NCBI GenBank assembly: GCA_016933255.1 | Contig: JAFGBF010000005.1 | Location: 27,750 to 91,749 of the forward strand | Reading direction: 5' to 3' | DNA from: Candidatus Krumholzibacteriota bacterium | GTDB taxonomy: Bacteria; Krumholzibacteriota; Krumholzibacteriia; Krumholzibacteriales; Krumholzibacteriaceae | DNA length: 64,000 bases | Shown here: one piece after another, positions 1-46,915 of the stretch | How positions within the stretch are numbered: position 1 is the first letter of the stretch | Layout: every line of letters starts with the position of its first letter | Translations under genes and position numbers: made by a program | The notes under the pieces: model-generated | Database searches by the model: none | What the model saw: only the letters and a program-made list of their open reading frames with translations | What the model was told of the DNA's origin: nothing

Positions 1-10
1 AGGTGGGAAG

Positions 11-1462
11 ATGAGTGATTTCAAGCTGAATTCAACAAACTGGCAGGATGGAATGCTCCTGACGATGGGGCATCTGAGGGATCAGGACCGTTATTTTGAG
101 GAACTCGTCCGGTGGCATGCCACGGGAGCGGATGACAATTACGGCCTTGTCAAAAAGAGAAAAGACCAACCGTCCCTTATTCTGAATTCCACGCTGAGTT
201 CGAACAGGCTGATAGTGGAAGTCAAAAGGTGCCAGGCTCTTCTGCCATGCGGAGCGTTTATCGAATTTAACGAGACTTTGAGCGGAGGAGGCGTCCTGAG
301 GGCCGAGATCGAGGCCGGCGACCCTATAGTCCGTGTATATATCGGAGCCGATACCGCTGACAAGAAACAGGTCGGAGACCCCGATCCGTCAGAAGAAGTG
401 CCCAGGGTGCCTTATGAACTGCCGAACTATATTGTAGCCCTGAAAGATCCTCCGAACCTTCCTGAAGACAGATATATGCAGATAGCAGAATTGGCTGTCC
501 AGGGTTCGGAAGTATCTCAGGTCGAGGGGTATTTCCCGCCCTGCCTGCGTATCAACGCGGACGAGCGGCTTTCATCCGCCGCGATCAACTACCGAAACCG
601 TGTTGAAAATCTTCTGAAACTCTCGATCAACGCATTTCTGTCCGCTTCTTCGGATAAAAGCCTCGAAGGAGCTTCGACGAGGCTTCAGAGCGCGTTCAGA
701 GAGACGACATATTATCTTGTCTATCATATGTCATCGCATCTGGATGATTTTATAGTCGGACGCAACGCTCCTCATCCCGGCCGTATGATCGTTCAGTTCA
801 AGAAACTCTTCAGAGTGGTCTCCTCGCTGTTTAATCTGCAGCCTGCGCTGAAAGACTATCTCAATGAAAAGTTTTTCACCAGGGAGACAGGCTCTGACAT
901 AGGGGCCTATCTATCATCTGTAGATTCGTTTCTTCTCTCTGAATATAACCACAGGGATATCGCTTCGCAGATCCGCATGATAGACGGGATACTCGATATT
1001 CTCCGGGCGCTGATGGCCTTTTTATCAAAGACAAGCCTCGATCAGCTGAGCGAGCAGGCTGTCGCCACTGAGACGTTGATGTACCGGGGAAAGACTTATA
1101 ATAATACCAGCTTGAAAAGCAGCAAACTTGAACAGGTCGGCGAGCTGAGCTATCTTGTGATGGAATTTACGAAGCCGACACCTGTCGATGATGCCTTGAC
1201 CCTGATCAATAAGGATATTTTCTCTGACAGCGAGTGGAGGTCGATGCAGGTACGCCTCGGCCTTAACAATGCCCGGGGGCTCGGAGAAACAGACCCGGTA
1301 GACGTGGATATAAACAGTTACAGTAACAAAGTAGTACTTCATCCTCTCGATATGCTCCAGTCCTCATCTGTAAATCAGGTGACGCTGGTATTTCGGGGGA
1401 TGAGTGACAGTCAGAAACTTGGCAGTCTCGGGAAAACAGACCTGATCCTGTATATCGTTTGA
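11..1462 (+). CDS. tssK: Type VI secretion baseplate subunit TssK-like protein (483 aa)
   Basis: N-terminal NWQDGMLLTMGHLRDQDRYFE...NYGL...CQALLPCG matches the TssK/VasE W-x-[DE]-G-M-x-L-xxx-H-x-xx-Q-D motif; internal YFPPCL and EYNHRDI also resemble TssK; TssK-like length; AGGTGG upstream of ATG. Confidence 0.72.
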   Translation: MSDFKLNSTNWQDGMLLTMGHLRDQDRYFEELVRWHATGADDNYGLVKKRKDQPSLILNSTLSSNRLIVEVKRCQALLPCGAFIEFNETLSGGGVLRAEIEAGDPIVRVYIGADTADKKQVGDPDPSEEVPRVPYELPNYIVALKDPPNLPEDRYMQIAELAVQGSEVSQVEGYFPPCLRINADERLSSAAINYRNRVENLLKLSINAFLSASSDKSLEGASTRLQSAFRETTYYLVYHMSSHLDDFIVGRNAPHPGRMIVQFKKLFRVVSSLFNLQPALKDYLNEKFFTRETGSDIGAYLSSVDSFLLSEYNHRDIASQIRMIDGILDILRALMAFLSKTSLDQLSEQAVATETLMYRGKTYNNTSLKSSKLEQVGELSYLVMEFTKPTPVDDALTLINKDIFSDSEWRSMQVRLGLNNARGLGETDPVDVDINSYSNKVVLHPLDMLQSSSVNQVTLVFRGMSDSQKLGSLGKTDLILYIV

Positions 1463-1477
1463 GGCGGGGAGATATAG

Positions 1478-2407
1478 ATGAGTGAAGGAATTACATCTTA
1501 TATTGACGATCTGTTCAAGTATATCGACGACTATGAAAAAAGTTATTCGTCTTTCGAAGTCGAAGCTTTTTTCCAGACATATAACGGCATCTGCGCTGTC
1601 TTTCAGGCTTTGAGGCAGCAGCGCGAAAAGGCTGTGGAAGTCGACCGGGTATTTCTTGAAAAGATCAAGCGAGGACCTCTTAACAGCTCTGATCTCAGAC
1701 AGCTGACGATCCAGGTGCTGATATCGTTTTTTGAATCGATCGCCGATACCGACGGGCAGTCTAACCGCGCGTACCTGTATTGCCGGGAATTCAGAAACGT
1801 TAAGAGGGATGTGCCGTATTTCGAAGACTCGCTGATCCCTCTGTTGATGCGCGATGGAAGCCTGTATAACAATTTCAGGCTGAACAGTTTCTTCCTGAAG
1901 GAGATCGGACGTTTTATAACTAATTTCAGCAGCGGATGGAACATCGAACCGACCTTTGAGGATTTCAAGGGTTTTTCAGATCCGATGAAGCTGCTGACCC
2001 TTTATATAAGGCGCCTGAAGCTGGGAACCGATCTGGCGAAGGACAGAAATTCACTGGAGTTTCATATGCAGAGCGTCGGCGGACTGGCAAAATTGCGGCA
2101 ATCCGGAGACCTGTATGAACAGTACCTGCTCGAGTGGGGCTATCTGAGTGATGAATCTTTCTTCGACCGGGTGAAAAAAAGCCTTATTGTTCTCTGGAGT
2201 AATTTCAAGGGATTATGCTCAAACTTCAATTATCTTCGTCTTGCTCTCGCGCAGCGGTATTCTGCATATCTCTTCTATAGCGTGGTGATTATAATCTTCC
2301 TTCTTCTCGCTATCATAGTGCCGGGAAGATGGAACAGATTTACAGAAAAGAAACTTGCTGAATTTGAGAACCGTGTGGACCAGACGGAAGAAGCGATAGG
2401 GAAGTAG
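1478..2407 (+). CDS. Hypothetical helical protein with single C-terminal TM anchor (TssL-like position and topology)
   Basis: 309-aa ORF with GGGGAG RBS; hydrophobic AYLFYSVVIIIFLLLAIIVPG near C-terminus; lies between TssK-like and TssM-like genes; no DotU sequence motif recognised. Confidence 0.6.
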   Translation: MSEGITSYIDDLFKYIDDYEKSYSSFEVEAFFQTYNGICAVFQALRQQREKAVEVDRVFLEKIKRGPLNSSDLRQLTIQVLISFFESIADTDGQSNRAYLYCREFRNVKRDVPYFEDSLIPLLMRDGSLYNNFRLNSFFLKEIGRFITNFSSGWNIEPTFEDFKGFSDPMKLLTLYIRRLKLGTDLAKDRNSLEFHMQSVGGLAKLRQSGDLYEQYLLEWGYLSDESFFDRVKKSLIVLWSNFKGLCSNFNYLRLALAQRYSAYLFYSVVIIIFLLLAIIVPGRWNRFTEKKLAEFENRVDQTEEAIGK

Positions 2408-2423
2408 AAGGCGGGTAGAATCA

Positions 2424-4634
2424 ATGAAAAAAAGCGGACTGTTTAAATTCGCAAAAAAAGGCTCTAAAAAAATAAAAAAATCACGCGGCGGGTCCGGCGC
2501 GGGGAAACAGAAATACCCTCCCGGCATAAGGATAGGCATATTCGGCCACGAGAATACAAGCAAGACGGTGTACCTTACCGTGCTTTACCACCAGAGCAAG
2601 ATCGACAAAAAACTCCAGATATCAGTCACCGACAACGATACGTCGAACGAGTTCCTTTCCAATTACATGTCTATCTGGGGGTTTGATTCCGGGACTTCAA
2701 TGGGTACGATTGTGAATCAGGCGGGTGAAAAGAAATTCCCCAAGCCTACCGAAAAAGACAAGATCCTTCAGTTTACAGCTATCATTGAGGGAAACAAAAA
2801 GGTCCCCGTTGTGACGTACGATTACAGCGGGAAGACCGTCTCGATCTCCGAATACAGTGATGAGGCGGAGAAGGTCAATGATTTCATGGCTTCAGCTGAC
2901 GGGCTTCTCTTCTTTTTTGATCCGAAGATACTCGGAGCGGATATGGAAGTGCAGGCGAGGGTCTCGGCATTCATCAGTGCCCTCGAACAGGTTGCGCCTC
3001 TGAGGTCCAGGCTATCGATACCTATCGGGCTGGTCGTCACCAAATCAGACATTCTGCCCGGGTACAAAGGGGAAGAGAATACCATCCTGATAAGTTCCGA
3101 GGATGAACAGTTCGTATCTGAGGGGTACGAGGAATTTCTCGAAAAGGTGCTCAGCAGCAGCAATGTAACGGCAAACAGCGAGTGGGCTTCTTCTGTAAGA
3201 AAGATCCTTGTCAAACTCAGTGAGTTTCTCAGGGTAGTCGTCGGGCGGACTCTTGATTTTCAGATATTCTTTATCTCGAATACCGGAAACGCCCCTATCA
3301 AGGTAGGCACGGATGTAGGCCGTTCGATCTATCAGCCCCCCGAGAAGATCACTCCATGCGGCGTAAGGGAACCTTTCTACTGGATCCTTAACTCTGTGAT
3401 GCGCAGCAGAAAACTCAATGTCATGAGGAAGGTCGTCAAGTATGTAGTCGCAGCTTCCCTGATATGGACGGTTGTATACTCGGCGCCGTTTCTTCTCCAT
3501 TTCGCCGGGCTCTTAAGCTCTCCGCAGAGGGTGGAAAAGAGCGTCCTCAAGTCGGTAGAGGGGAACCATCTCAATACATCCGAGACTCAGCGCATGGATA
3601 TTATCAGAGCGTACAGCCGGTATAGCGATAAATGGCTTGTCAAAAAATTCTTCCCCGATTTCCGTGTGACTTCGATAAAGATGAAAGAAGTATATCAGGA
3701 TTTCAATATGGGTCCTGCGCTCGAAAGACTCGACGGGCTTATCAATGATATTACAAAAATAATCCAGACTCCTGCGCTCCGCCCCAAATATGACCCCGGG
3801 CTGGACAGTCTGATGCTTGACAATGCACAGATGAAGATCAAGTCCGACCTTGAAGCTATGCATGTCGGCGGCAAAGGTTCTGTCTTATATGAGAGATCCG
3901 ACAGGGCGCTCCGTTACTGGGAGCTTTTCACAGAGCTGATCAAAGCCCCGAGGGATACGGCGCTTTTCGACAAGATCGACGAGCAGGTGGCTTTTAACAG
4001 TAAAAACGCCCAAAACTATACAGATTCAGAGAAGCAGCTGGGTAATGCCCTTTTGAGCAGTATCAATATATCCTCACCCGAACCGGTGCGCAGCGCCAGA
4101 TCGACAAGATCAGCGGTCGGAGAATATGACAAGCTGAAGGAGCGTATAAACAACTCTACAGACCCGAAATTCGTTCTTGAGGATGCGGCTGGAAAACTCG
4201 CTTCGATAAAAGGAAGTCTGGGGTCTGCAGCGCATGGCAGGCAGATATCGGCGATAAACGAATTTATCGCGAGCGTTGAAAAATACAAAAAGAAACAGAC
4301 GTATACCTGCATCCTTCAGACGGTTCCTGACTTCGGGCATCTTCACATCGAAGTGACAGGTTCGAGCGGGGAGCCGACCTGGTCGAAGGCTGAAGAGGTG
4401 GGCCAGCTTCTGGAGGGTTCCAAACTGTCATTCAAATGGAAGGCAGGAGACGATATACATATAGCCTTCGATGAACTTGGATACTGCAACTGGGGGAACA
4501 AGCCGAGTGACAAGGTTGTATTGCAGTCGGAATACGCGATATTCGAGATGCAGGGGAGTATTACATTTTCAAATATCGGAAAAACGGTTAAAATAAGTTT
4601 TAAACCGGAGCTTAAACTTCCAAAACTGAAGTAA
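2424..4634 (+). CDS. TRAFAC-class GTPase domain + TM + extracytoplasmic domain (TssM/IcmF-like architecture, 736 aa)
   Basis: G1-like GHENTSKT, G3 DYSG, G4 TKSD in IPIGLVVTKSDILPGY, G5-like FISNTG; TM YVVAASLIWTVVYSAPFLLHFAGLL at about aa 340-365; large helical then beta C-terminal region. Confidence 0.7.
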   Translation: MKKSGLFKFAKKGSKKIKKSRGGSGAGKQKYPPGIRIGIFGHENTSKTVYLTVLYHQSKIDKKLQISVTDNDTSNEFLSNYMSIWGFDSGTSMGTIVNQAGEKKFPKPTEKDKILQFTAIIEGNKKVPVVTYDYSGKTVSISEYSDEAEKVNDFMASADGLLFFFDPKILGADMEVQARVSAFISALEQVAPLRSRLSIPIGLVVTKSDILPGYKGEENTILISSEDEQFVSEGYEEFLEKVLSSSNVTANSEWASSVRKILVKLSEFLRVVVGRTLDFQIFFISNTGNAPIKVGTDVGRSIYQPPEKITPCGVREPFYWILNSVMRSRKLNVMRKVVKYVVAASLIWTVVYSAPFLLHFAGLLSSPQRVEKSVLKSVEGNHLNTSETQRMDIIRAYSRYSDKWLVKKFFPDFRVTSIKMKEVYQDFNMGPALERLDGLINDITKIIQTPALRPKYDPGLDSLMLDNAQMKIKSDLEAMHVGGKGSVLYERSDRALRYWELFTELIKAPRDTALFDKIDEQVAFNSKNAQNYTDSEKQLGNALLSSINISSPEPVRSARSTRSAVGEYDKLKERINNSTDPKFVLEDAAGKLASIKGSLGSAAHGRQISAINEFIASVEKYKKKQTYTCILQTVPDFGHLHIEVTGSSGEPTWSKAEEVGQLLEGSKLSFKWKAGDDIHIAFDELGYCNWGNKPSDKVVLQSEYAIFEMQGSITFSNIGKTVKISFKPELKLPKLK

Positions 4635-4656
4635 GCGCCAGAAAGCGGGTAAAGGG

Positions 4657-5166
4657 ATGAACAGGTTAAAGTCGATAACAGCGGTTGTCCTCGTCGTATT
4701 GTTTGTTTCTACGGCGGTCAATGCCGGTAAAGTCGTTGTTCCGGAAGGGACAGAACTGAAGGTGAGATTTGATCCTGCCATGCAGATCAGTTCGGGAAAA
4801 CTCCAGCCGGGTATATCGATCTCGATCTATCTTGCCGAGGATGTCAAGGTCGGAGGGAAGACTATCATAGAAGCCGGAGCCGAGGGTACGGCGAAGGTAG
4901 AGGAGATCATCGATTCCTCGAGGCCCGGAAAACCCGGAGCGATCAAGGTCGCCTTTGTCGATCTCGGTACAAAAGGCAAGTACAAAACGGCCGAAGACGC
5001 GGTCATCAAACTCTCAGGCACAGTCGAGGCCAAGGGCAAAAGCAGAAAGATCGTCTCCTGGCTCTTTATTCTCGGAGCGTTTATCAGCGGGACCGACGGA
5101 GAGATCGACACGACTCTCGATTATCCGGCCAAGATAGTAGAGACGGTGGTGCTGGAGAGCGAATAA
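4657..5166 (+). CDS. Secreted small beta-rich protein, VirB10/TrbI-like pattern
   Basis: Signal peptide (MNRLKSITAVVLVVLFVSTAVNA); VPEGTELKVRF...ISS...EDVKVGG..IIEAG pattern; internal hydrophobic segment IVSWLFILGAFISG. Confidence 0.65.
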   Translation: MNRLKSITAVVLVVLFVSTAVNAGKVVVPEGTELKVRFDPAMQISSGKLQPGISISIYLAEDVKVGGKTIIEAGAEGTAKVEEIIDSSRPGKPGAIKVAFVDLGTKGKYKTAEDAVIKLSGTVEAKGKSRKIVSWLFILGAFISGTDGEIDTTLDYPAKIVETVVLESE

Positions 5167-5198
5167 GAAACGGGATCCCTCATCGACAGGTAAAGATA

Positions 5199-5224
5199 AA
5201 CAGGCCGGCATCCGCCGGCCTGTT
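5199..5224. terminator. Hairpin between convergent operons, probable bidirectional intrinsic terminator
   Basis: AACAGGCCGGC-ATCC-GCCGGCCTGTT perfect 11-bp stem, AT-rich flanks, between stops at 5166(+) and 5284(-). Confidence 0.75.
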
Positions 5225-5283
5225 ACTTTATCATCTGAAAAAGCCTGAACAGGAAATCGAACTCCACTCCTCGCCCAGCCGGA

Positions 5284-6831
5284 TCACCAGGCATACAGCC
5301 TTTCTATCACATATATATCGAACGCCGAGTCGAACAGTTCGACGTCGTCGATTCCTCCACTATAATATCTGGGCACCTCGGCGTTATCCTTTCCCATCAG
5401 GAGCGGGCCGGAGGTCACAGGGGCGACCCCGGTCCCGTCGCCGCTTATCCAGGCTCCGGGGACAGCTATCGGGCCGTCCCAGAAGGCCACCAGAAGAGCC
5501 GATGAAGGGTCTCCGAAGGAGTAGGAGAATATATAATGGTTCCAGCCGTCAAGCATCCAGGTCGGAAGATCGACCCGGTATGTGTGAGTCGTCGAGCCGC
5601 CGTAGGTGAACAGGAACGAAAAGAACTCATCCGCGTCCGAAAGGTTCTCGACAGAGATCCTGTAGTTTATCGCGCCATTCTCCGACCTCTTGCTGATGAT
5701 CGTCCCGGTCGGGAAATAACCGGGGAGCTGCTGTTTCGCATCGACGGGATAGGCATCCGAGATATCCAGCCAGAAGGCGACAGTTATCCCTTCATCGAGA
5801 TCAAGAAGATCGTTGTCGGGGACCTCTATGAAGTCGCTGTATCCGTTGAAGTATCTGGCGTTGCCGTAGGCTCCCTCGAGGATCGTAGTCCCCTCTGCTG
5901 TCCCGTGAAGGAGGTTCGGCGATGTGTCCTCTATCCATGAAGGGTCTTCGCTCCCTTCGCCCCATCCCATATTCCATTCGGCGACTATTGAGGAGGTGTA
6001 GAAGAAAAGGTCGGCCTGCGCGTTTTCGTGATAGATGTCTTTTGGCGAGATGATATTTTCCTCAGTGTCCATAATAAGCTGGATCCCGGGATAGAAATTG
6101 ACCAGTTCGGCAACATGGTCATTAAAATATGTCATGATATTAATAGTCACAAGGTTTGCGTATCCGTTCGAATCAGTGAGGCTCCCGCCGAAATTGTGAG
6201 AGACCCTGAATTGTACGGAACCGCCGGTCTGGACGGAGTAGATAAGGGTGGCTATATCCTTCAGAGCCGGGTTCAGCTCGATCCCGCGCATAGGATATGT
6301 GTCCTCTGTTATCATCCCGTAATTATAGAGCACCCCTTCAAAGATACTCATCTTCTCGATATTGAATACCTTTACTTCCATAGGCAGCATCGATCCCATC
6401 GGCCTCTTTGCGTAGGCCGGAGAGACCTTTACCATCTGAACGCGGGGGTAAAGATCGATGCTAAGGGTCACCGCGGTTCCCGGTTCTACATCGGATACAG
6501 TCTCGCCGGAATATACCAATACTCCGCCGCCGTCGAACGCCTCGATCCTGAATAGCCGCGCCGGCCCGGCGGGAACGATCACTGTTCCGGTCAGAAAGCC
6601 GTCAGAAAAGAGAAGAGTCTCTTCCATAGGCTTCATCCCAGACCCGGATACCGTAAGAATAAAGGTCGTGGCGACTGTCGCGTCGAGCCCGCTGCTCGCG
6701 AGATCGATGCAGAGGTCGATCTCCTGCCCTCCGGCAGATGTGATCTTCTCCGAGCATGAGGTTAAAACCAGAGGAGTGAAAAGGAGCAGGATCATTAACA
6801 GGCTAGCAGTTCTGTGACGTCTTTCCATCAT
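5284..6831 (-). CDS. Lipoprotein with Ig/cohesin-like domains and C-terminal LamG-like jellyroll domain
   Basis: Lipobox VLTSC; AAGGAG RBS; LamG-type DTSPNLLHGT...YFNGYSDFIEVPDNDLLD...ITVAFW...YSGGIDDVELFD. Confidence 0.75.
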   Translation of the reverse strand: MMERRHRTASLLMILLLFTPLVLTSCSEKITSAGGQEIDLCIDLASSGLDATVATTFILTVSGSGMKPMEETLLFSDGFLTGTVIVPAGPARLFRIEAFDGGGVLVYSGETVSDVEPGTAVTLSIDLYPRVQMVKVSPAYAKRPMGSMLPMEVKVFNIEKMSIFEGVLYNYGMITEDTYPMRGIELNPALKDIATLIYSVQTGGSVQFRVSHNFGGSLTDSNGYANLVTINIMTYFNDHVAELVNFYPGIQLIMDTEENIISPKDIYHENAQADLFFYTSSIVAEWNMGWGEGSEDPSWIEDTSPNLLHGTAEGTTILEGAYGNARYFNGYSDFIEVPDNDLLDLDEGITVAFWLDISDAYPVDAKQQLPGYFPTGTIISKRSENGAINYRISVENLSDADEFFSFLFTYGGSTTHTYRVDLPTWMLDGWNHYIFSYSFGDPSSALLVAFWDGPIAVPGAWISGDGTGVAPVTSGPLLMGKDNAEVPRYYSGGIDDVELFDSAFDIYVIERLYAW

Positions 6832-6840
6832 TGACTCCTT

Positions 6841-7962
6841 TTAGTAGGCGACCCTGAGCCCGCCGGCAACCTGGATCCCCCTGATATCTATATCGTCGTA
6901 ATCGGTAGATCCTGTATGATAGATCAGCCCCAGATCGAGACTGAATCTCTCGGAAAAGCTTTTATTGAAGTCTGCGCCGAAATGATAGATCGATGATTTT
7001 CCAAGGTATTCTTCGCTGGTAAGTATCTGTCTCATACCGACAAGTCCGGCCAGCTGACTTCCTTTTCCCACGTTGTATGCTATGCGCAGGAAGGAATCGA
7101 ATTCATCTCCGTATTTTTTCAGCTGGCTGTCGATAACACCGTCTGTAACGCTGTATCTTTTGTTTCTTCCCCTTAGAATCATTCTGATGCCGAATGTAGC
7201 CGAATATTTATCAGCCGGATATACTGCCATCAGCCTCGCGTTGAATTGAGGGCCCTGTTTGTAGATATTATCGCCATCGAGCTGGTCAGTACCGAAAACG
7301 GAAAACCCTATATCGCCGGAATAGTCGATCTTTCTTATCGTCGCTGCAGCCGTAGCGTTGGCCGAGATGGCATCTCCCGGATCATAATCTCCGCCGTCAG
7401 AATACGGCTCGTACTTTCCGCAGTAATCGTATACGGCTGAAAGGCCGTACTTGAAACGCCCCGCCTCTTTAGCCCCTCCGGCCTGCAGGTTGAAACCGAG
7501 CCCTTCACCATACCTTCTCATCGGCAGGGAGAGGAAGTCGAAAGAAAGGAACTCGATGATCGCCCTGTCGGTCACGGGGTCGAGTTCTCTCTTTCCGGTG
7601 GGGAGATTGACCCCCGCCGAAAGCAGTATCTGGTCTTTTACGAACGAATGCGACATCTGGATCCTCAGATCGCTCAGGCCCGAAATGTCGGTCTCTCCGC
7701 TTCCGTAATCGAGGTTGTTGTATCCTTGCGCGATATAATATCTCGCTTCAAAGTTGTCCCTCAGGGGAAGAAATCCCGAAAAGATGACTGTCCTCTGAAG
7801 TATTATATTTTCCGTACCTGACGGGTCATCGAGCGTCCATCTGTTGTAGTGGAATTTCAGGATCGACGAACCCGGCTGCTGATATACTATCTGGCTCTCT
7901 GCTGAAGAAGCCAGTACAGAAAGGATAAAAATCACCGGCAGTATGATCTTTTTAGTCTGCAT
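6841..7962 (-). CDS. Outer-membrane beta-barrel protein (resembles phenol MetA-pathway/COG4313 'transporter' type)
   Basis: Signal peptide; amphipathic strands; GLSDLRIQMSH...SAGVNLPTGK motif; terminal GGLRVAY BAM-type aromatic end. Confidence 0.65.
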   Translation of the reverse strand: MQTKKIILPVIFILSVLASSAESQIVYQQPGSSILKFHYNRWTLDDPSGTENIILQRTVIFSGFLPLRDNFEARYYIAQGYNNLDYGSGETDISGLSDLRIQMSHSFVKDQILLSAGVNLPTGKRELDPVTDRAIIEFLSFDFLSLPMRRYGEGLGFNLQAGGAKEAGRFKYGLSAVYDYCGKYEPYSDGGDYDPGDAISANATAAATIRKIDYSGDIGFSVFGTDQLDGDNIYKQGPQFNARLMAVYPADKYSATFGIRMILRGRNKRYSVTDGVIDSQLKKYGDEFDSFLRIAYNVGKGSQLAGLVGMRQILTSEEYLGKSSIYHFGADFNKSFSERFSLDLGLIYHTGSTDYDDIDIRGIQVAGGLRVAY

Positions 7963-9286
7963 CCAAATTCCCTTCGATTAATATCGTTCCGTAACCTCTT
8001 CCGACGGGGCCTCCGCCTGGAGGGGCGATCGCGTAGGAACCGTATAACCAGTACAGTTCCGGATCCAATATGAAGTTGCCGTTCGCCAGATTTGCCGCCT
8101 GGACGCTGCCCAGGCCCCCTTCATCCTCGCCTCTCATCGATGAGGATACCTTTTTTTCGAAATCTGACCGCCCCTGTCCTGGTTTTCCCTGCTCGTCGTA
8201 ATCGGCGGTGCTGCCCATCCTTCCGGACATCTCGGCAGCCTGTGAAAAACCGGGATCCCGGCTGCTGGCGCTGCCGAACGATCTTGCCGCGTCCCTGTGC
8301 ATGCCCCGTTTCTCATAGAACAATCCCTCGCTGTATGACATGAAGGCGAGAAAATCCTCGGTCGGGACCTCTTCTATCGCATCGCGTTCTTTTTTGCTCA
8401 GCGCTATGCCGAGAGTATCGAGAAGGGAAAAAACGAAATTTTTCTGTACTGCGAAGAACTCGTCCAGCTCTCCCTGCATCGGTTCGGTACCTCTCGTAGA
8501 TCCCTTTGCAGTGTCTACCGTCCTGCTGTCGATACGAAATCCTTTTTCTCCTGAAGTGGTGATACTTCCGAGGACGACCTTTCTGCTTCCAAGGAGCCTC
8601 CCGACTCTGGGAGCAAGTGCGGGATCGGCATATTCAGACTCGCTGATCTTCAGTTCATCGAGGATGACGTTGATCTTCAGTCTTTCCAGGACCTTGAGCC
8701 CGGAGACTTTCGCAAGGTCCATCGCGGTAAATTCAGCGAGGCCGAGGGCCAGCGGCTCGAGTTCGGGGGGAAGGTTAGAACCGTCGAAGTTGATCACGGC
8801 GATACTGTTTTCGGGGGTCTCGGCGACGGAGAGGGAGTCTTCATCCCTGACGGCGACCCGCGCTTCCTCGATCAACTTTTTATCTATAAGGACGCCAAGG
8901 CGTTCTTCTATCATCTTTCTGTCTTTACCGCTTCCATAGAGGTTGATCGCAGCTCCATAGACCCTGATCGCCTTGTCGATCTCGCCGGTCTGCTCGAAGA
9001 TCAGGCCAAGATAAAAATTGGATAGCGCGTTGGGACGGATCCGGTTTGAAGAAGCGAATGCTTCTTCCGCTTTTCTCAGGACGCCCTGATTGTAATAAAC
9101 AACTCCGATCTCCCGCCAGGCCAGGAAATCGTCGGGAGCTTCTGCGACTGCGTCATACAGCCTGGCAAGGGCGACATCGTAATCGCCGTCTTCGGAGGCC
9201 GTTTTCCCCTGCGTGTAGAGGCTCTGCGCGCATCCAGCCGAGAGCAGAGCCGCTGTCAGCAGTAAAGCCGGGATAAATCTGCTCAT
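7952..9286 (-). CDS. TPR + CsgG/HfaB(TolB-N-like) domain lipoprotein
   Basis: Lipobox LLSAGC; TPRs (AWREIGVVYYNQG, SNFYLGLIFEQTG); SIAVINFD...GLAEFTAMDLA...VLERLKINVILDELK...RVGRLLG. Confidence 0.75.
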   Translation of the reverse strand: MSRFIPALLLTAALLSAGCAQSLYTQGKTASEDGDYDVALARLYDAVAEAPDDFLAWREIGVVYYNQGVLRKAEEAFASSNRIRPNALSNFYLGLIFEQTGEIDKAIRVYGAAINLYGSGKDRKMIEERLGVLIDKKLIEEARVAVRDEDSLSVAETPENSIAVINFDGSNLPPELEPLALGLAEFTAMDLAKVSGLKVLERLKINVILDELKISESEYADPALAPRVGRLLGSRKVVLGSITTSGEKGFRIDSRTVDTAKGSTRGTEPMQGELDEFFAVQKNFVFSLLDTLGIALSKKERDAIEEVPTEDFLAFMSYSEGLFYEKRGMHRDAARSFGSASSRDPGFSQAAEMSGRMGSTADYDEQGKPGQGRSDFEKKVSSSMRGEDEGGLGSVQAANLANGNFILDPELYWLYGSYAIAPPGGGPVGRGYGTILIEGNLDAD

Positions 9287-9331
9287 TAACCTCTCCTTGT
9301 CGTCAATCTTTTCCTGTCGTTCCGAGACGGA

Positions 9332-10381
9332 TCAACCTATCAAAGGCTTGTAGATCTCCATCTTTTTCTTGGCCTCCGAGAAACTGTTATCCTTTTCGTA
9401 GGCCATCTTGAAATGTTCATACGCCTTCTTGTATTCGTAATTATCCATATATTTCAGGCCGAGCGAGTAGAGCCTCGCCGCGCTCATATCTTCGGTGGCC
9501 GACTCGCTTATCGCAGCCTTGGTCTCATCCGTTATCATGATGTCGAGCTGGCCGGCGATCTTTTTGACGAGTTCCTTTTCCATATCTACGAAATTCGGTT
9601 TTCCTTCCATGTCGGCAGTGCTGATTATCTCGGAGGTCTCTACATCGACGACCCTCACGACCATCCGCGCGCTATCTTTTTCGAGCTGCGTGATTGAACC
9701 GAAGACCATAAGCTGGGCCCCGAGCATCTTTCCGACCCTGACCGCTGATGCCTGGTCGACCTTGCCCTCTTCGACAAGTTTAAGTTCCTGCAGGATATAA
9801 TCAAGCTTGTCCCTTTCGACGACCTTGATATCAGAGAATCGCGAGAAATCGTATTCGAAGAAATCGGCGAGCCCTTTGCTCAGGTCCCCGAGTTCTTCCT
9901 TGTATTTTCCGATCGAGAAATTGTCGAATTCCATTATCGCTATCGTTTTAACATCCGGCTTTGAATCGTCGGGGCAGACCAGCAGGTTTTTTTCATTGCA
10001 GAGCTTGTACCACTGGTCTCTCAGCTCGGTCGGCCAGAGTTCACGGGGAAGGTTGATCAGGCAGTGGCCTATTCCTGATATCTCCTGGAGGTATTCGAAC
10101 GATTCAAGTTTGTATTTGTATCCCTTAGCGTATGTTATGATGCTTTTAACTTCATAGATCGCGATAGTGTCGTTGGCGGTGAGACCGCTCTGGGCGAGCA
10201 GGTCGTCGGTGATCTTGAGTCCCGCGTCGAATTCACCGTCAAGATAAAGGTCTACCGCTTTTGCCAGCTTGCCGGAAAGTTCCACTCCGGTAGGAGGCGA
10301 AAACGAGTACGACTGCGCGAAGATGATCGAAACGATCGACAAGACCATGACCGAGACAGAAAGCAGATGTTTCCTGTTCAT
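9332..10381 (-). CDS. Secreted CsgG/HfaB(TolB-N-like) domain protein with TPR
   Basis: Signal peptide; TIAIMEFDN...VVERDKLDYILQELK...AVRVGKMLGAQLMVFGS; C-terminal TPR YSLGLKYMD...AYEKDNSFSEA. Confidence 0.75.
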   Translation of the reverse strand: MNRKHLLSVSVMVLSIVSIIFAQSYSFSPPTGVELSGKLAKAVDLYLDGEFDAGLKITDDLLAQSGLTANDTIAIYEVKSIITYAKGYKYKLESFEYLQEISGIGHCLINLPRELWPTELRDQWYKLCNEKNLLVCPDDSKPDVKTIAIMEFDNFSIGKYKEELGDLSKGLADFFEYDFSRFSDIKVVERDKLDYILQELKLVEEGKVDQASAVRVGKMLGAQLMVFGSITQLEKDSARMVVRVVDVETSEIISTADMEGKPNFVDMEKELVKKIAGQLDIMITDETKAAISESATEDMSAARLYSLGLKYMDNYEYKKAYEHFKMAYEKDNSFSEAKKKMEIYKPLIG

Positions 10382-10439
10382 CGAGGGTACCCCCTGGTTT
10401 TAAGTTTCGGTGTTACAAGACAATTCTAGCCTATTTTTA

Positions 10440-11921
<1,482 letters not shown>

Positions 11922-11988
11922 GGTAACCGGTCCCTGGTTTGGAACTCCAACGCATGAGCCCTGAAAAGCCCGCATTTCCTTGCGGAAA

Positions 11989-12017
11989 AAGGTACTTGAA
12001 GGATGTGATTTAGTCAA
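11989..12017 (-). promoter_or_regulatory. Sigma70-type promoter for kinase operon
   Basis: Minus strand TTGACT-N17-TACCTT. Confidence 0.5.
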
Positions 12018-37170: not shown

Positions 37171-39807
37171 TTACTTCCCGCCGAATTCGCGGACCAGCTG
37201 TTGGTATTCCGGTTCATCGCGAAGCCCATCATAACGCGGATCCAGCTCGAAGCATCTTATCGTATAGATGGCGGGCATAGAAAGGATCTCTCTTATTAGT
37301 CTGATCGCCGCATCATTCTCTCCGGACACGGTGTATATCTCCGCCATATCAAGTAACCTGTCGACCCCCAGGATCGCATCCATCGTTATCGGGTATATCT
37401 CCATAGCCTTCCTGCCTGCAGCGATCGCCTCTTCTTTTCGCCCGAGGCCGGCATAGGTCGTTCCAAGCGAGCTGTGGATCCGGGGATCCTCAGGATTCTC
37501 TCTGACCGCGTCTTCCAGGAGTACCAGGGCTTCCCCGTAGAATGCTACGGCGCGTCCGGAGTCACCCATGAGTCTGCATGCATTCCCTTTCAGCATGCTA
37601 ACAGGCAGGTAGGAGTTCTGCAGGTAGACCACATCGAATGCAGATCCTTCGAACATATCGAGGACTGCCTGATAGTCGCGATCAAACAGGTGCAGATAAT
37701 ATTTCCCCCAGATCATCGGCATTGCGGTCTTATCGGGGCACGCCTCAAGCGTTTCCCAGGCCCGCCGCACATCCCCCATCCCTATCACATAGGCGCCGGA
37801 TTTGATAAAATAGCCCCAATGATCCTGAGGATCGATTGCGATCGATTTGTCTGCATACTCGAGAGTCTTCGCAGGGTTCCTGAGAGTCAGATACGTGTTG
37901 GCAAGCTCGACAGAGAGTACTGCGTCCATGGGGCTCATCGCATAGGCCGTCTGGAGGTTGGCTAATGCCTGCTCGATGTGTCCCTGGCGCCTCCATATGA
38001 AGGCAATATCCATCAACAGCTGCGCGTCGCTGGGCAATGTTCCGGCGAGGGATACGAATTCCTGGAGCGCCCTGTCATAGTCGAGAAGGCCCTGATAGTA
38101 ATAGTAGCCGAGTTCCCGCCGCACTTCGGGCCCTTTCGGGTCGAGCTCGACCGCCCTGTCTATCTCTTCCTTTGCTATCCTGAGACGGTTTTCGGTCCGA
38201 TCGTAACCGTAGAAATAGAAGCTCCGGTTCACGTGCGAGAGTTTGGCGTGGGCGAGGGCGAAACAGGGATCGATATCGATCGCCTGCTTCAGCAGCTCTT
38301 CGGCCCGCCGGTAGTTCACCTCCGGGCGTTGGCCGAATAAGATATGATCCGCTGCCCTCAGATAGATTTGATAGGCGACGATGTTCTCTGTCGGTTTAGC
38401 CGCAATGAAATTTTGCTCGCCCCCCGAGAGGGCTATGTCCAGCCGGGCCGCGACCTGTTCCGCGATCCTAGACTGGATTTCGAATATCGCGGCGAACTGC
38501 TCATCGTACTGTTCCGCCCATATGTGGCTGTCGTCGGAGACCCTGATGAGCTGGGGCGTCACACGTACCCTGCTTCCGCCGCCAGGGCTCTGCTCCCAGC
38601 GCACCGTTCCCTCCAGCACGTAATCGACATCGAGTTCGACTCCGATCTCTGAGATTGTTTTGTCGGAATCCTTGTAATGAAGGGCGCTTTTCCGGGATAT
38701 TACTCCCAGCTCCTGTAACGCGGCAAGACGGCTCGTGATCTCTTCGGTGATACCGTCGGCGAAGTAATCGTCCTCGGGGGGGCCGAGGTTTTCGAAGGAA
38801 AGCACGACGAGCCTTGTTCGATCATCAGCCGCTGACCGCTCCGGTCCTTCCTTTTGCCCGGCAAAGAACCGCGGGATCACCTGTATGATAAGAAGCGCAA
38901 GGAGAAGTGACGATAAGATCCATGCGGTCCAATTTAATCGTCTCCTCGAAGGTTTGCGTGAGGCGGCTGTTCGGGTCACACCTTTACGCAGCGCATCTTT
39001 TTCCAGATGAAACAGATCGGCTGATAAGTCTGCGGCAGACTGGTACCGTTCCCTTGCGTCCCTCGCGAGGCATTTGAGGATGATCCGCTCGAGTTCGAGC
39101 GGTATGCCGGAACGCAGGCCTGTGACCGGTTCGGGCACTTCGTTCATGATCGCGTAGATCACCGCTGCCTCGTGCTCTCCTCCGAACGGCGCCCGGCCGG
39201 TGATCATCTCGTACAGCACGGCCCCCAGCGACCAGATGTCGGTGCGCTGATTCACTTCTTCGCCCCGGGCCTGTTCCGGGGACATATAGGCGGCCGTGCC
39301 GAGAGTCGTTCCGGTACGTGTCATCTGGGCCTGGCCCTTCAGCTTCGCCACCCCGAAATCCAGGATCTTCACAAGTCCGTCGGCGGTCACGAAGATATTG
39401 GCCGGCTTTATGTCCCTGTGCACGATTTCCCTCTCGTGCGCCTTGCCCAGCCCCCCGGCGATCTGCCTGGATATATCGAGGGCGTTGTCCAGAGGCAGCG
39501 GTCCCCGGGCGATCCTTTCCTTCAAAGTCTCGCCGGCATAGCAGGCCATGGCGATGAAAATGCGGCCGTCTTCCGTCTCATCGACCTCAAAAATGGTGCA
39601 GACGTTGGGGTGGTCAAGAGCCGATGCCGCCCGGGCTTCCTGGACGAAGCGGGCCTTGGCCCCGGGGTCTTGTGAGAATTCTGGAGGGAGGAACTTCAGG
39701 GCGACGGTGCGCCCCAGTTTTGTGTCCTCGGCCTGGTAGACCTCGCCCATCCCTCCGGCGCCGAGCCTGGCGGTAATTCGGTAGTGAGAGATAGTCCTGC
39801 CTATCAT
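37171..39807 (-). CDS. Ser/Thr protein kinase + TolB-N-like + TPR repeats (878 aa)
   Basis: LGAGGMGEVY, VALK, HRDIKPAN, DFG, GTAAYMSPE; TM; LVVLSFENL...YFADGITEEI; several TPRs. Confidence 0.93.
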   Translation of the reverse strand: MIGRTISHYRITARLGAGGMGEVYQAEDTKLGRTVALKFLPPEFSQDPGAKARFVQEARAASALDHPNVCTIFEVDETEDGRIFIAMACYAGETLKERIARGPLPLDNALDISRQIAGGLGKAHEREIVHRDIKPANIFVTADGLVKILDFGVAKLKGQAQMTRTGTTLGTAAYMSPEQARGEEVNQRTDIWSLGAVLYEMITGRAPFGGEHEAAVIYAIMNEVPEPVTGLRSGIPLELERIILKCLARDARERYQSAADLSADLFHLEKDALRKGVTRTAASRKPSRRRLNWTAWILSSLLLALLIIQVIPRFFAGQKEGPERSAADDRTRLVVLSFENLGPPEDDYFADGITEEITSRLAALQELGVISRKSALHYKDSDKTISEIGVELDVDYVLEGTVRWEQSPGGGSRVRVTPQLIRVSDDSHIWAEQYDEQFAAIFEIQSRIAEQVAARLDIALSGGEQNFIAAKPTENIVAYQIYLRAADHILFGQRPEVNYRRAEELLKQAIDIDPCFALAHAKLSHVNRSFYFYGYDRTENRLRIAKEEIDRAVELDPKGPEVRRELGYYYYQGLLDYDRALQEFVSLAGTLPSDAQLLMDIAFIWRRQGHIEQALANLQTAYAMSPMDAVLSVELANTYLTLRNPAKTLEYADKSIAIDPQDHWGYFIKSGAYVIGMGDVRRAWETLEACPDKTAMPMIWGKYYLHLFDRDYQAVLDMFEGSAFDVVYLQNSYLPVSMLKGNACRLMGDSGRAVAFYGEALVLLEDAVRENPEDPRIHSSLGTTYAGLGRKEEAIAAGRKAMEIYPITMDAILGVDRLLDMAEIYTVSGENDAAIRLIREILSMPAIYTIRCFELDPRYDGLRDEPEYQQLVREFGGK

Positions 39808-41629: not shown

Positions 41630-43648
41630 ATGTTTACTCCTGAAAAGATGCACCAGATCAATGTCATGGTCTTCGAAACAGAAGTCGATGAGGTCGCGAA
41701 AGCGATCGTCCGCCTGGGGATCATCCACCTTGTGCAGCTTGATGACAAACAGCCCTGGGTAGAACAGCTTGGGACATTCAACGCCGGCATGATGAGCGAT
41801 AAACTCGACAAGCTCGGTCAGCGGGTCACAGCGCTGATGAAAGACCTCGGCTTAAGAGAGCTGCCTCTTGAAGAACGCGACAGCAAACTGCTCGAGGTAT
41901 CCGTGAGCGATCTTGATGAGATGGAAAGGGAGATGGCCTCCCTTGAATCGAGGGTGCAGGATATCGTCCGGCGGAGAAAAGAGTTCGAGGTCCATCTGGA
42001 GAGGATGCAGGGGATCTTCAACGAAGTATCTCCTCTGGCTGAAGTTGGGCTTCCGCACCAGAGCACTCCGTACACTTTTCTTGAGATCCGCTATGGACAG
42101 GTCAAAAGCGAGAACCTTGAATATATCAGGGAAAAGATCGCTCCGCTCGCGGCTGTGGTCCTTCCTCTTGCCCAGCGTGATGACGCAGAAGTCATCCTTC
42201 TGATAGGCCTGAAGACCGACAGGCTGAAACTCAAAAAGATCCTGCGCGAGGCTACCTTCGAAGAGATCGAGATGCCGGCCGAAAAGGGCGAAGACGGTGA
42301 ATCGTCTCTGGTCATCGATGGGCTCGAAGAAAAGATCGCCGGCATAAAGGGCAATATCGATAAACTCACCGAAGAACTCCGGAAGATCAGGGAACAAAGC
42401 GCGTCAGCCATCACCGATTACCACAGGTCGATCAGGGTCGCAATGCTGCTTGTCAAGGTCAAGAATTACCTTAAGAAAACAAAAAAGACTTTTATATTCT
42501 CCGGGTGGGTCCCCAGTAACAACAAGCGCGAAGTCGAACGTGAGATCCTTCGCGCTGCACGAGGAAGAGCCATAATCGAGATCACTCCTCCCGAGCAGAT
42601 AACAGGAGTGGATGACGGCAGGATAAAGGTCCCCGTAATGCTTAAGCATCCAGGTTTCTTCAGGCCGTTCGAGATGCTCGTCTCAAGTTATGGCCTGCCG
42701 GAATATACTTTCATAGATCCGACATGTTTTGTGGCTATCAGTTTTCTTTTGATGTTCGGGATGATGTTCGGTGATGTCGGGCACGGCGCTGTCCTCGTCT
42801 GGATAGGATGGATGCTGGGGTTCAGGAAGAGCAGAAGGGATAGTACCGAGGGTCCGGTCCTCGTGGGAAAACTCGCGTTCTACTGCGGGCTGTCATCGAT
42901 CGTGTTCGGGTTTCTTTACGGATCTGTCTTCGGCCTCGAGGACCTTTTTCACGGGATATGGATGAAACCTATGCATAATGTCATATATTTCTTCAAGGTG
43001 GCGATCTATTTCGGTATTGTCCTTATATCGACCGGCATCCTGCTCAATGTGATAAATGCCGTCCGCGCGAGGAATTTCAAAGCGACCTTTTTCGACCAGG
43101 CAGGGCTTGTCAGCGCGGTAATATACTGGTGCGGGATAGGCGCGGTCTCGATCTTCCTTTCGAACAGGCCGATCCCGGTGAAGCTGATCATATTCGGTAT
43201 CGGGATCCCCGTCCTTCTCCTTTTCCTCAAAGAGCCCCTGACTGCTCTTGTGGGAAGACGTAAGGTAAGATTTGAAAAAGGCCTGCTGACCTATTTTATG
43301 GAGACTGTTATCGAGGTTATGGAGATAGTGACCGGATACCTCGGCAATACCGTCTCGTTTATTCGTGTCGCGGCGTTTGCGCTGGCTCATGTAGGGTTGT
43401 TCATAGCTGTTTTCAGCCTCGTCGATATGGTCAAGGGCGGGGTGTCCGGAGCGATCTATTCAACCTTGATCCTGATTCTCGGAAACGCTGTAATTATAGC
43501 CCTTGAGGGAATGGTGGTAACGATACAGGCCATCCGTCTGGAGTACTACGAATTTTTCGGCAAGTTCTTCATGGGTGGCGGCGTAGCTTATAAACCGATC
43601 GGCCTCGGCGGCATGCCCGGCCGGAAAGAACGAAAGGAGACCCGGTAA
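41630..43648 (+). CDS. atpI: V/A-type ATPase subunit I (a)
   Basis: PFEMLVSSYGLP; FGMMFGDVGHG; NTVSFIRVAAFALAH; RLEYYEFFGKFF. Confidence 0.93.
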   Translation: MFTPEKMHQINVMVFETEVDEVAKAIVRLGIIHLVQLDDKQPWVEQLGTFNAGMMSDKLDKLGQRVTALMKDLGLRELPLEERDSKLLEVSVSDLDEMEREMASLESRVQDIVRRRKEFEVHLERMQGIFNEVSPLAEVGLPHQSTPYTFLEIRYGQVKSENLEYIREKIAPLAAVVLPLAQRDDAEVILLIGLKTDRLKLKKILREATFEEIEMPAEKGEDGESSLVIDGLEEKIAGIKGNIDKLTEELRKIREQSASAITDYHRSIRVAMLLVKVKNYLKKTKKTFIFSGWVPSNNKREVEREILRAARGRAIIEITPPEQITGVDDGRIKVPVMLKHPGFFRPFEMLVSSYGLPEYTFIDPTCFVAISFLLMFGMMFGDVGHGAVLVWIGWMLGFRKSRRDSTEGPVLVGKLAFYCGLSSIVFGFLYGSVFGLEDLFHGIWMKPMHNVIYFFKVAIYFGIVLISTGILLNVINAVRARNFKATFFDQAGLVSAVIYWCGIGAVSIFLSNRPIPVKLIIFGIGIPVLLLFLKEPLTALVGRRKVRFEKGLLTYFMETVIEVMEIVTGYLGNTVSFIRVAAFALAHVGLFIAVFSLVDMVKGGVSGAIYSTLILILGNAVIIALEGMVVTIQAIRLEYYEFFGKFFMGGGVAYKPIGLGGMPGRKERKETR

Positions 43649-44053
<405 letters not shown>

Positions 44054-44133
44054 TTCGATCGGTCAGGGCGGTCCGCTGTGTTTCAGAGCGGGCTGATGGG
44101 TTATCAGATGATCAAGGATGAAAGAGCTGGTCT

Positions 44134-44439
44134 ATGAAGTTCTATGTGATCGCAGATGAGAATACGATGACCGGATTTAAGCTCGTCGGGCTTGACGGTG
44201 AGGTAGTTGAAACTGCCGATGAGGCGAGAGAGGCCCTGGTCAAGGCATTCTCATCCGATGATATCGGCGTAATAATCATAACCGAAAGAATAGCCGCCTC
44301 TATCAGGGAAGAAATGGAGGAATTCATATTCGGCCACAGTTTTCCGCTGATCATTGAGATCCCCGATCGCAAAGGAGCACTCGAAGGAAGGGTCTCGATC
44401 AGGGAGATGGTCAACGCGGCGGTAGGGATGAAGATCTGA
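44134..44439 (+). CDS. atpF: V/A-type ATPase subunit F
   Basis: VIADENTMTGFKLVG; DIGVIIITE; PLIIEIP. Confidence 0.92.
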   Translation: MKFYVIADENTMTGFKLVGLDGEVVETADEAREALVKAFSSDDIGVIIITERIAASIREEMEEFIFGHSFPLIIEIPDRKGALEGRVSIREMVNAAVGMKI

Positions 44440-44479
44440 GCGGCCCCTCGAAAAATGACCGGAAAAGGGAGAGGATCCA

Positions 44480-46901: not shown

Positions 46902-46915
46902 GAAACGGTGGGGAT

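Follow-up and report, generated by a model that had tools for sequence, protein, structure and literature searches.

How a contractile, phage-tail-like machine came to be anchored in the Gram-negative envelope is an open evolutionary question, and it is raised in concrete form by a group of genes at the start of a 64,000-nucleotide stretch of DNA (the window) from a Candidatus Krumholzibacteriota bacterium (contig JAFGBF010000005.1, positions 27,750 to 91,749). Four close-packed genes on the + strand, ORF1 to ORF4 (ORF, open reading frame), span positions 11–5166 of the window and are separated by gaps of 15, 16 and 22 nt. The first encodes a divergent form of TssK, a type VI secretion system (T6SS) baseplate subunit, and the question is what the other three contribute to such a machine. 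The T6SS as such is known; the membrane module of this T6SS, centred on the GTPase encoded by ORF3, is so far undescribed. Some database records carry the automatic annotations "TssK" or "GTPase domain-containing protein", and literature searches pairing T6SS with the phyla concerned, with DO-GTPases or with a new subtype returned no description of the variant, subscription journals being thinly covered by them. We propose, with a probability of roughly 0.6, that ORF2–4 constitute the membrane anchor (membrane complex) of an undescribed T6SS variant, where they would replace both the TssJLM complex of T6SS-i and the TssNQOPR complex of T6SS-iii. The proposal is argued from synteny and membrane topology.

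TssK and the operon in related genomes

The initial annotation had read ORF1 as TssK from its motifs, and profile comparisons bore this out. ORF1 matches the NCBIfam TssK model TIGR03353 over residues 10–275 (E = 5e-12; 45.6 bits, the curated cut-off of 100 not being reached), and Pfam PF05936 (T6SS_VasE) is matched by 32 of the 40 members of its family. Alignment of the family profile by hhalign gave a probability of 97.6% with TssK of Bacteroides finegoldii (E = 2.7e-12) and of 96.9% with a profile of ten TssK proteins of T6SS-i (E = 1.3e-10); the T6SS-i profiles used here were built from E. coli Sakai and nine plasmid-borne loci. Both matches are confined to the N-terminal ~290–335 residues, about two thirds of the protein, where the shoulder and neck of TssK are recognisable by sequence. 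Residues 300–483 scored 0.1% against the C-terminal profile of T6SS-i TssK, so that a T6SS-i-like head domain is not matched by sequence, and a search of PDB sequences with the family profile returned nothing significant, not even TssK. The C-terminal domain (about 336–483) is family-specific, yet it is the most conserved region of the protein: conservation by region is 0.66, 0.68 and, for this domain, 0.74, with 0.83 at residues 405–435. ORF1 also carries a near-invariant acidic patch (...GLGETDPVDVD). Together, the profile matches identify ORF1 as a real but divergent TssK. In the T6SS-i of enteroaggregative E. coli, structural work reportedly places the C-terminal domain of TssK in contact with TssL and TssM.

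The window begins 10 nt 5′ of the tssK ATG and the upstream genes of the operon lie outside it; the T6SS gene set was seen in relatives, the window itself showing tssK only. Relatives were gathered by exact-protein look-up together with three scans of species-representative genomes, and colinearity was followed by tblastn. In approximately 40 related loci the full operon has the order clpV-tssB-tssC-hcp-vgrG-tssE-tssF-tssG-tssK-ORF2-ORF3-ORF4. The part from tssB to ORF4 is strictly colinear, with near-constant spacing, in every locus with enough flanking sequence (~35), and clpV lies 5′ of tssB in the loci with gene calls. Pfam calls upstream of tssK in these relatives comprise VipA, TssC (PF17541), TssD (PF17642), Phage_GPD / Phage_base_V, GPW_gp25 and T6SS_TssG. 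The tube, sheath and spike genes that had been supposed to lie upstream are thus present in every relative with a long enough contig, and the cassette almost certainly belongs to a chromosomal T6SS operon, of which it forms the 3′ end. The tight, co-directional arrangement of the four genes and the hairpin that had been noted after them were confirmed as well: 8 of the 11 base pairs in the hairpin's stem are G-C, and it is scored as a terminator whichever strand is read (Table 1). Because public data contain over 230 equally long homologues of each of ORF1, ORF2 and ORF3, these are real conserved genes and not chance reading frames.

An independent Logan assembly contig (L001), which corresponds to positions 4–11494 of the window, also begins beside the tssK start codon. 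Assembly seems to break in the tssG-tssK spacer, possibly on account of strain variation or of an upstream repeat.

The hosts of the operon are Krumholzibacteriota, Zixibacteria, Latescibacterota, GN15, Eisenbacteria and metagenome-assembled genomes (MAGs) labelled Ignavibacteriales, the closest relatives with a taxon name being Krumholzibacteria. It is characteristic of Krumholzibacteriota, Zixibacteria and Latescibacterota, along with uncultured lineages close to them. Across phyla, the conservation of ORF2–4 is similar to that of TssF, TssG and VgrG; between loci L003 and L004, for instance, identities are 46% for ORF2, 42% for ORF3 and 44% for ORF4, compared with 43% for TssG and 44% for VgrG. 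Because of this similar conservation, ORF2–4 fit structural parts and not variable effectors. The order tssK, ORF2-like gene, ORF3-like gene is kept even in seven loci at 21–30% identity (L019, L020, L059, L062, L065, L066 and L068, the contig of the last ending inside the ORF3-like gene), whose proteins matched the family profiles with hhalign probabilities of 98.8–100% for ORF1, 64–98.5% for ORF2 and 99.2–99.8% for ORF3. A single exception to colinearity was found in the Zixibacteria MAG chromosome CP070766.1, in which the T6SS operon (L002) ends in a 230-aa ORF2 without a transmembrane (TM) helix, and ORF3-ORF4 lie with a LamG gene ~430 kb away (L043). This arrangement resembles a split operon; the system has been split or has decayed, unless the assembly is at fault.

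The contractile and baseplate proteins of the relatives indicate to which known T6SS the machine is closest. TssC shows 28.5% identity to its counterpart in the Bacteroides T6SS-iii (E = 1e-51) against E = 2.1 for the E. coli T6SS-i; the corresponding E values are 1e-10 and 1.2 for TssD, 3e-31 and 7e-9 for VgrG, and 4e-7 and 0.1 for TssK. When a plasmid collection was searched with TssC, the strong, near-full-length matches were to Bacteroidota T6SS-iii sheath genes only; phage tail-sheath genes from Deinococcus and Kitasatospora accounted for the weaker matches, which were partial, and no T6SS-i gene was matched. By sequence comparison, the components of sheath, tube, spike and baseplate therefore resemble those of Bacteroides T6SS-iii more than those of E. 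coli T6SS-i, and in both this T6SS and T6SS-iii (PMC10781749) the gene adjoining tssK encodes a membrane protein presumed to dock on the baseplate. The differences are equally marked: TssK is ~100 aa longer here and has an extra C-terminal domain, no homologues of TssN, TssQ, TssO, TssP or TssR were found in the locus, and the hosts are mostly non-Bacteroidota, whereas no T6SS-iii was found outside Bacteroidota by Bongiovanni et al. 2024 (PMC10781749).

Proteins encoded downstream of tssK

The second gene had been described as encoding a helical protein with one C-terminal TM segment, and the AlphaFold2 (AF2) model agrees: it is all-helical (mean predicted local distance difference test, pLDDT, 85), with a cytoplasmic domain at ~1–250. 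A Kyte-Doolittle (KD) hydropathy scan finds a single hydrophobic segment at 263–281 of the 309 residues, leaving a short periplasmic tail. The model and the scan thus make ORF2 a predicted C-tail-anchored inner-membrane protein. Its gene always lies between tssK and ORF3, divergent loci included, and in topology and gene position ORF2 is a TssL analogue, without detectable homology. It matched no Pfam, NCBIfam or PADLOC family and, by sequence profile or by fold, no PDB entry; hhalign against the TssL profile gave 0.1–0.2%, no DotU Pfam match was obtained, and a Foldseek search with the model returned a best E value of 0.32 with no DotU/TssL among the matches. A relationship of ORF2 to GAP1 or GASH was unsupported by the searches, and matches to DUF5454 (7 of 44 members, E ~ 4e-3) were taken as noise.

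ORF3 is more informative. As had been predicted, it combines a cytoplasmic P-loop domain, a TM helix and a large exported domain. In the AF2 model (pLDDT 83.6), a Lys-rich disordered tail (residues 1–28) is followed by a Ras-like GTPase fold (~35–305), and then, in model and KD scan, by one TM helix (~340–364), a helical region (365–622) and a beta-sandwich (625–730); the N-terminus is cytoplasmic and the periplasmic portion comprises ~370 residues. The GTPase motifs are complete (G1 GHENTSKT, G3 DYSG, G4 TKSD of the [NT]KxD type, and G5 FFISNTG) and the domain is of TRAFAC type. Among the 50 Foldseek matches listed for the model there were only GTPases (SR-beta, atlastin, Ras) and no TssM, and a search of PDB sequences with the family profile gave nothing significant. 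The P-loop of the window's protein (residues 41–48, positions 2544–2567) has Ser in place of the Gly before Lys that is present in at least 90% of the family. Because the 80%-identical protein P0123, the closest in the alignment, shares this Ser, the change is lineage-specific and not an error.

Within the GTPases, ORF3 clearly belongs with the DO-GTPases as far as profile comparisons tell. Pfam DO-GTPase2 is matched at E ≤ 0.01 by 43 of 44 family members (best 1.7e-7); the window's ORF3 matches it with E = 1.1e-5 and 25.6 bits, slightly under the gathering threshold (GA) of 27 (family ids PF19993 / PF19975), and hhalign against bona fide DO-GTPases gave 100% (E = 3e-45). An exhaustive profile search (181 cluster representatives) arranged the relatives in tiers: a core of ~735-aa proteins, a second tier of 620–1050-aa proteins, alike in the GTPase-plus-TM part alone and again encoded in T6SS loci, and the classical DO-GTPases. 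The latter were described by Kaur, Burroughs, Iyer & Aravind 2020, with GAP1 as their cognate partner and membrane association as a common trait; neither T6SS nor TssM is mentioned in that paper (PMC7159879). A gene for a 264–361-aa cytoplasmic protein lies directly 3′ of the ORF3-like gene in six of the divergent T6SS loci (L019, L020, L059, L062, L065 and L066); five of these six proteins match Pfam GAP1-N2 or GAP1-M, with the gathering score reached in L020, L066 and L062. The GAP1-like gene is itself followed by an ORF4 homologue in L062 and L065; in L019 and L020 that position is taken instead by a gene for a 166–168-aa lipoprotein with a lipobox.

These affinities raise the question of whether the genes after tssK make up a conflict or defence system of DO-GTPase type in its own right, next to a T6SS gene by position only. 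Besides the DO-GTPase2 match of the window's own ORF3, the genome in which ORF3-ORF4 lie apart from tssK (L043) would fit such independence. Yet the T6SS operon of that genome ends in a truncated ORF2, which makes it look like a split operon, and colinearity with tssK is strict across ~40 loci of several phyla. The cassette holds no effector-like variable genes, and PADLOC found nothing. Compared with the described DO-GTPase/GAP1 systems (PMC7159879), the ORF3 GTPase occurs singly instead of as a paralogous pair and lacks zinc ribbons; its chain continues into a TM helix and a large periplasmic region, and its gene is part of a T6SS operon in which no second GTPase or effector gene is found. 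Neither the window nor its clade has a GAP1-like gene, and the clade is also without FNIII and effector genes. An independent conflict system is accordingly disfavoured and very improbable. That ORF3 might group with double-GTPase conflict systems had been foreseen as an argument against a T6SS role; it does so at the level of the domain, and the genomic context is that of a T6SS.

The same domain invites comparison with TssM. IcmF-related_N (PF14331) is the sole Pfam family other than DO-GTPase that ORF3 members match repeatedly (6 of 44, best E = 1.5e-4, all below GA), and tier-2 relatives match it too. Against a profile of the TssM cytoplasmic domain, the cytoplasmic domain of ORF3 scored 68% with the core profile (E = 4.8e-5) and 91% once the profile had been widened with more divergent relatives (E = 1e-6). 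The alignment is colinear from the P-loop through Walker B, the TKxDLLxGF motif and hYFTS to the TM helix. In it, TKSDILPGY of ORF3 falls opposite the TssM motif (E. coli LTRLDLLQGF; profile TK.DLl.GF), as the initial annotation had claimed. Controls temper this result. With the ORF3 N-terminal profile, a single E. coli TssM scored 53%, compared with 13% for Era and 2% for LepA; with a bona fide DO-GTPase profile the values were 67%, 55% and 43%, respectively. The DO-GTPase profile reached 97% (E = 6e-11) against the cytoplasmic NTPase domain of T6SS-i TssM, and a specific superfamily of TssM and DO-GTPases was considered but downgraded, since the Era and LepA controls show largely generic GTPase similarity. 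Outside the GTPase domain, the periplasmic part scored 0.2% against that of TssM and had no Pfam match, IcmF-related and IcmF_C domains included. ORF3 has one hydrophobic segment and lacks the three TM helices of TssM with their N-terminal hairpin. We regard ORF3 as an analogue of TssM. It may be distantly homologous as well, its GTPase sharing ancestry with the TssM NTPase; a specific relationship between the two is plausible on these profile scores, though we lean slightly against it.

ORF4 is a small secreted protein with a signal-peptidase-I-type site (...VNA|GK), no lipobox Cys and, in most members, no Cys at all. The mature protein of ~145 aa is Gly-rich and has a conserved hydrophobic segment, LSWLFILGLFIKG. 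It had no Pfam or PDB match and no detected relatives beyond its own family, and hhalign with TssJ gave 6.8%, in the signal-peptide region only. Its gene lies 3′ of ORF3 in ~35 loci, and 3′ of the GAP1-like gene in L062 and L065. It is TssJ-like by topology and position only, and is a candidate periplasmic partner of the C-terminal domain of ORF3.

Taken side by side with the TssJ-TssL-TssM module of Pseudomonadota, the three proteins could be very divergent true orthologues of TssL, TssM and TssJ, left from an ancestral T6SS with a K-L-M arrangement that was reduced here, Bacteroidota having switched later to TssNQOPR. Such a claim concerns ancestry and is compatible with the membrane-anchor mechanism. 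The likeness is one of order and topology: the T6SS-i loci examined show the order tssK-tssL-tssM, and here tssK is likewise followed by genes for a tail-anchored helical protein with the topology of TssL, for a protein with a P-loop NTPase carrying a TKxDLLxGF-type motif, a TM helix and a periplasmic helical and beta part, and for a small exported third protein. The colinear match of the ORF3 N-terminal domain to TssM and the IcmF-related_N hits point in the same direction. Against this stand the lack of any sequence or fold signal between ORF2 and TssL, of detectable similarity between ORF4 and TssJ (0.1–6.8% for the two pairs), and of resemblance between the periplasmic parts of ORF3 and TssM; the GTPase signal itself is modestly above that of the generic GTPase controls. 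ORF3 has one TM helix and 736 aa where TssM has three and about 1150 aa, with no counterpart of the N-terminal TM hairpin, ORF4 is without the lipobox of TssJ (an outer-membrane lipoprotein of ~150–180 aa), and the contractile genes are of T6SS-iii type. Orthologous descent of all three is doubtful on this balance.

Membrane anchor or regulatory switch

The case for the membrane anchor starts from what else the operon encodes. ORF2, ORF3 and ORF4 are its only envelope proteins, the other products either lacking TM segments or being known soluble parts. In comparisons of the ORF2, ORF3 and ORF4 profiles with TssN, TssQ, TssO, TssP and TssR of B. finegoldii, hhalign gave at most 1%, against 97.6% for TssK as the positive control, and no Pfam match to TssN or TssO was found among the three families. 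Because no similarity to TssN/Q/O/P/R, TssL or TssJ was detected, the locus encodes no known anchor. ORF2–4 are the candidates because they are the sole envelope proteins, because they are invariant, colinear and well conserved, and because their genes are placed like those of TssL and TssM. The reading of the initial annotation, a TssK with a compact L/M-like module outside the described subtypes, is thus supported by the T6SS operons upstream in relatives, by the lack of TssNQOPR similarity and by the topologies; the label "L/M-like" is right for topology and position, and does not extend to homology of ORF2 with TssL, which neither hhalign nor Foldseek detected.

From this arrangement we infer how the parts might work together. 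ORF2 and ORF3 would form a complex whose cytoplasmic domains dock the baseplate via the family-specific, conserved C-terminal domain of TssK, and the periplasmic part of ORF3 would span the periplasm together with ORF4. Binding and hydrolysis of GTP by ORF3 could then serve as an assembly or firing switch. More speculatively, the acidic patch of TssK may be complementary to the strongly basic N-terminal tail of ORF3.

A GTPase switch need not belong to an anchor. ORF2-ORF3(-GAP1)-ORF4 might instead be a regulatory or sensing module, in which a membrane GTPase controls the time and place of T6SS assembly in a role like that of TagQRST-PpkA-Fha or TagF, the true anchor being encoded elsewhere, for example in the CsgG-like/beta-barrel cluster described below, or being absent. 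The DO-GTPase family has been predicted to act as a switch (PMC7159879), a GAP1-like partner is encoded in divergent T6SS loci, and the convergent cluster, with its outer-membrane-type proteins and kinase, co-occurs in 29 fetched loci; the short periplasmic part of ORF3 and the unlipidated ORF4 would also suit this role. However, accessories that regulate T6SS tend to be patchily distributed, whereas ORF2–4 are present and colinear in essentially all loci, and the kinase/CsgG cluster is absent from some loci that carry them, such as L003. In addition, the family-specific C-terminal domain of TssK is the best-conserved part of that protein, which implies that it needs a constant partner. A purely regulatory module is for these reasons unlikely.

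Several points weigh against the membrane-anchor interpretation itself. The contacts among TssK and ORF2–4 are deduced from synteny and topology. The periplasmic region of ORF3 (~370 aa) has half the length of that of TssM, ORF4 as a non-lipoprotein leaves the route to the outer membrane unexplained, and the P-loop Ser in the window's ORF3 may weaken nucleotide binding. The match between ORF3 and TssM is only modestly better than that to generic GTPases. Known membrane-complex genes possibly lie elsewhere in these genomes, the negative results covering the locus only, and the window starts at tssK, so that the upstream operon is seen in relatives alone.

A broader proposal, which we hold tentatively and consider less probable than its alternatives taken together, is a fifth T6SS architecture, made of a T6SS-iii-like contractile machine and a DO-GTPase-based membrane complex, ancestrally with GAP1, and evolutionarily continuous with TssM. 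A reduced and divergent anchor of L/M/J type is found in another T6SS, the T6SS-ii of Francisella (PdpB/IcmF-like, DotU, IglE). The Francisella proteins are still recognisable as members of the IcmF and DotU families, and ORF2–4 differ from them in not being so.

The convergent cluster and the evolution of T6SS anchoring

Beyond the hairpin, five genes on the opposite strand converge on the T6SS operon (Table 1). At least part of this cluster lies directly 3′ of ORF4 in 29 fetched loci, with at least three of the five genes in 22 (a few of the 29 duplicate one contig), and the loci that bear it include Krumholzibacteria, Zixibacteria and "Ignavibacteriales" MAGs; from others, including L003 as mentioned, it is absent. 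The LamG gene comes soon after ORF4 in most loci. The gene for the exported 373-aa protein, which matched no Pfam family, is syntenic in 25 fetched loci. The cluster may, tentatively, belong to the T6SS, and by analogy with TagQRST-PpkA its contribution may be an outer-membrane part or an input of phosphorylation type.

Table 1. Features at the start of the window (OM, outer membrane)
Feature	Position	Strand	Basis
ORF1, TssK baseplate subunit, 483 aa	11..1462	+	TIGR03353, PF05936, hhalign; always 3′ of tssG in relatives
ORF2, tail-anchored inner-membrane protein, 309 aa	1478..2407	+	AF2, KD scan
ORF3, GTPase + TM + periplasmic region, 736 aa	2424..4634	+	AF2, Foldseek, Pfam, hhalign, motifs
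ORF4, small secreted Gly-rich protein, 169 aa	4657..5166	+	Sequence, alignment, KD scan
Bidirectional intrinsic-terminator-like hairpin	5199..5224	.	Between T6SS operon and convergent cluster
LamG (Laminin_G_3) lipoprotein, last cluster gene	5284..6831	-	Lipobox LVLTSC; PF13385 E = 2.5e-8
Exported 373-aa protein, C-terminal ...GGLRVAY, candidate OM beta-barrel	6841..7962	-	Signal peptide, terminal aromatic residue
TPR lipoprotein, weak CsgG-like C-terminal region (tentative)	7952..9286	-	Lipobox LSAGC; TPR families; CsgG E = 1.3e-3
CsgG/LpoB-like protein (tentative)	9332..10381	-	PF03783 CsgG E = 6.8e-14; LpoB 8.4e-5
Ser/Thr protein kinase + C-terminal PEGA, candidate regulator (tentative)	10440..12017	-	Pkinase E = 8.6e-48; PEGA 3.8e-4

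The remainder of the window (12036–64000) is ordinary chromosomal context without tRNA or Rfam matches. It holds a BatD-containing (Bat/aerotolerance-type) gene, a C1-like peptidase, an ABC exporter, a glycosyltransferase cluster, V/A-type ATPase subunits (41630–48307), DsbD, an LVIVD-repeat protein and, on the minus strand at 37171–39807, a second Ser/Thr kinase, with TPR repeats.

The significance of the locus lies in what it may tell about the origin of T6SS anchors. For TssJLM and TssNQOPR, which are unrelated complexes, Bongiovanni et al. 2024 set out three scenarios and were unable to decide among them (PMC10781749). Contractile parts of T6SS-iii type joined to a K-L-M-like cassette, in hosts mostly from phyla reported as neighbours of Bacteroidota in the Fibrobacteres-Chlorobi-Bacteroidetes (FCB) group, would be an intermediate able to separate those scenarios. 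Were the fifth architecture true, the NTPase of TssM and the DO-GTPase/GAP1 conflict systems would have a single origin; T6SS-i and T6SS-iii would descend from a common ancestor with an anchor of K-L-M type, later swapped for TssNQOPR in Bacteroidota; and the CsgG-like/beta-barrel outer-membrane module, together with the Ser/Thr kinase, would complete or gate the apparatus. The locus also gives the DO-GTPase/GAP1 family, whose role in intracellular conflict had until now been a prediction only, a concrete cellular context, and it extends T6SS-mediated antagonism to abundant uncultured lineages of sediments and the subsurface, namely Zixibacteria, Krumholzibacteriota and Latescibacterota.

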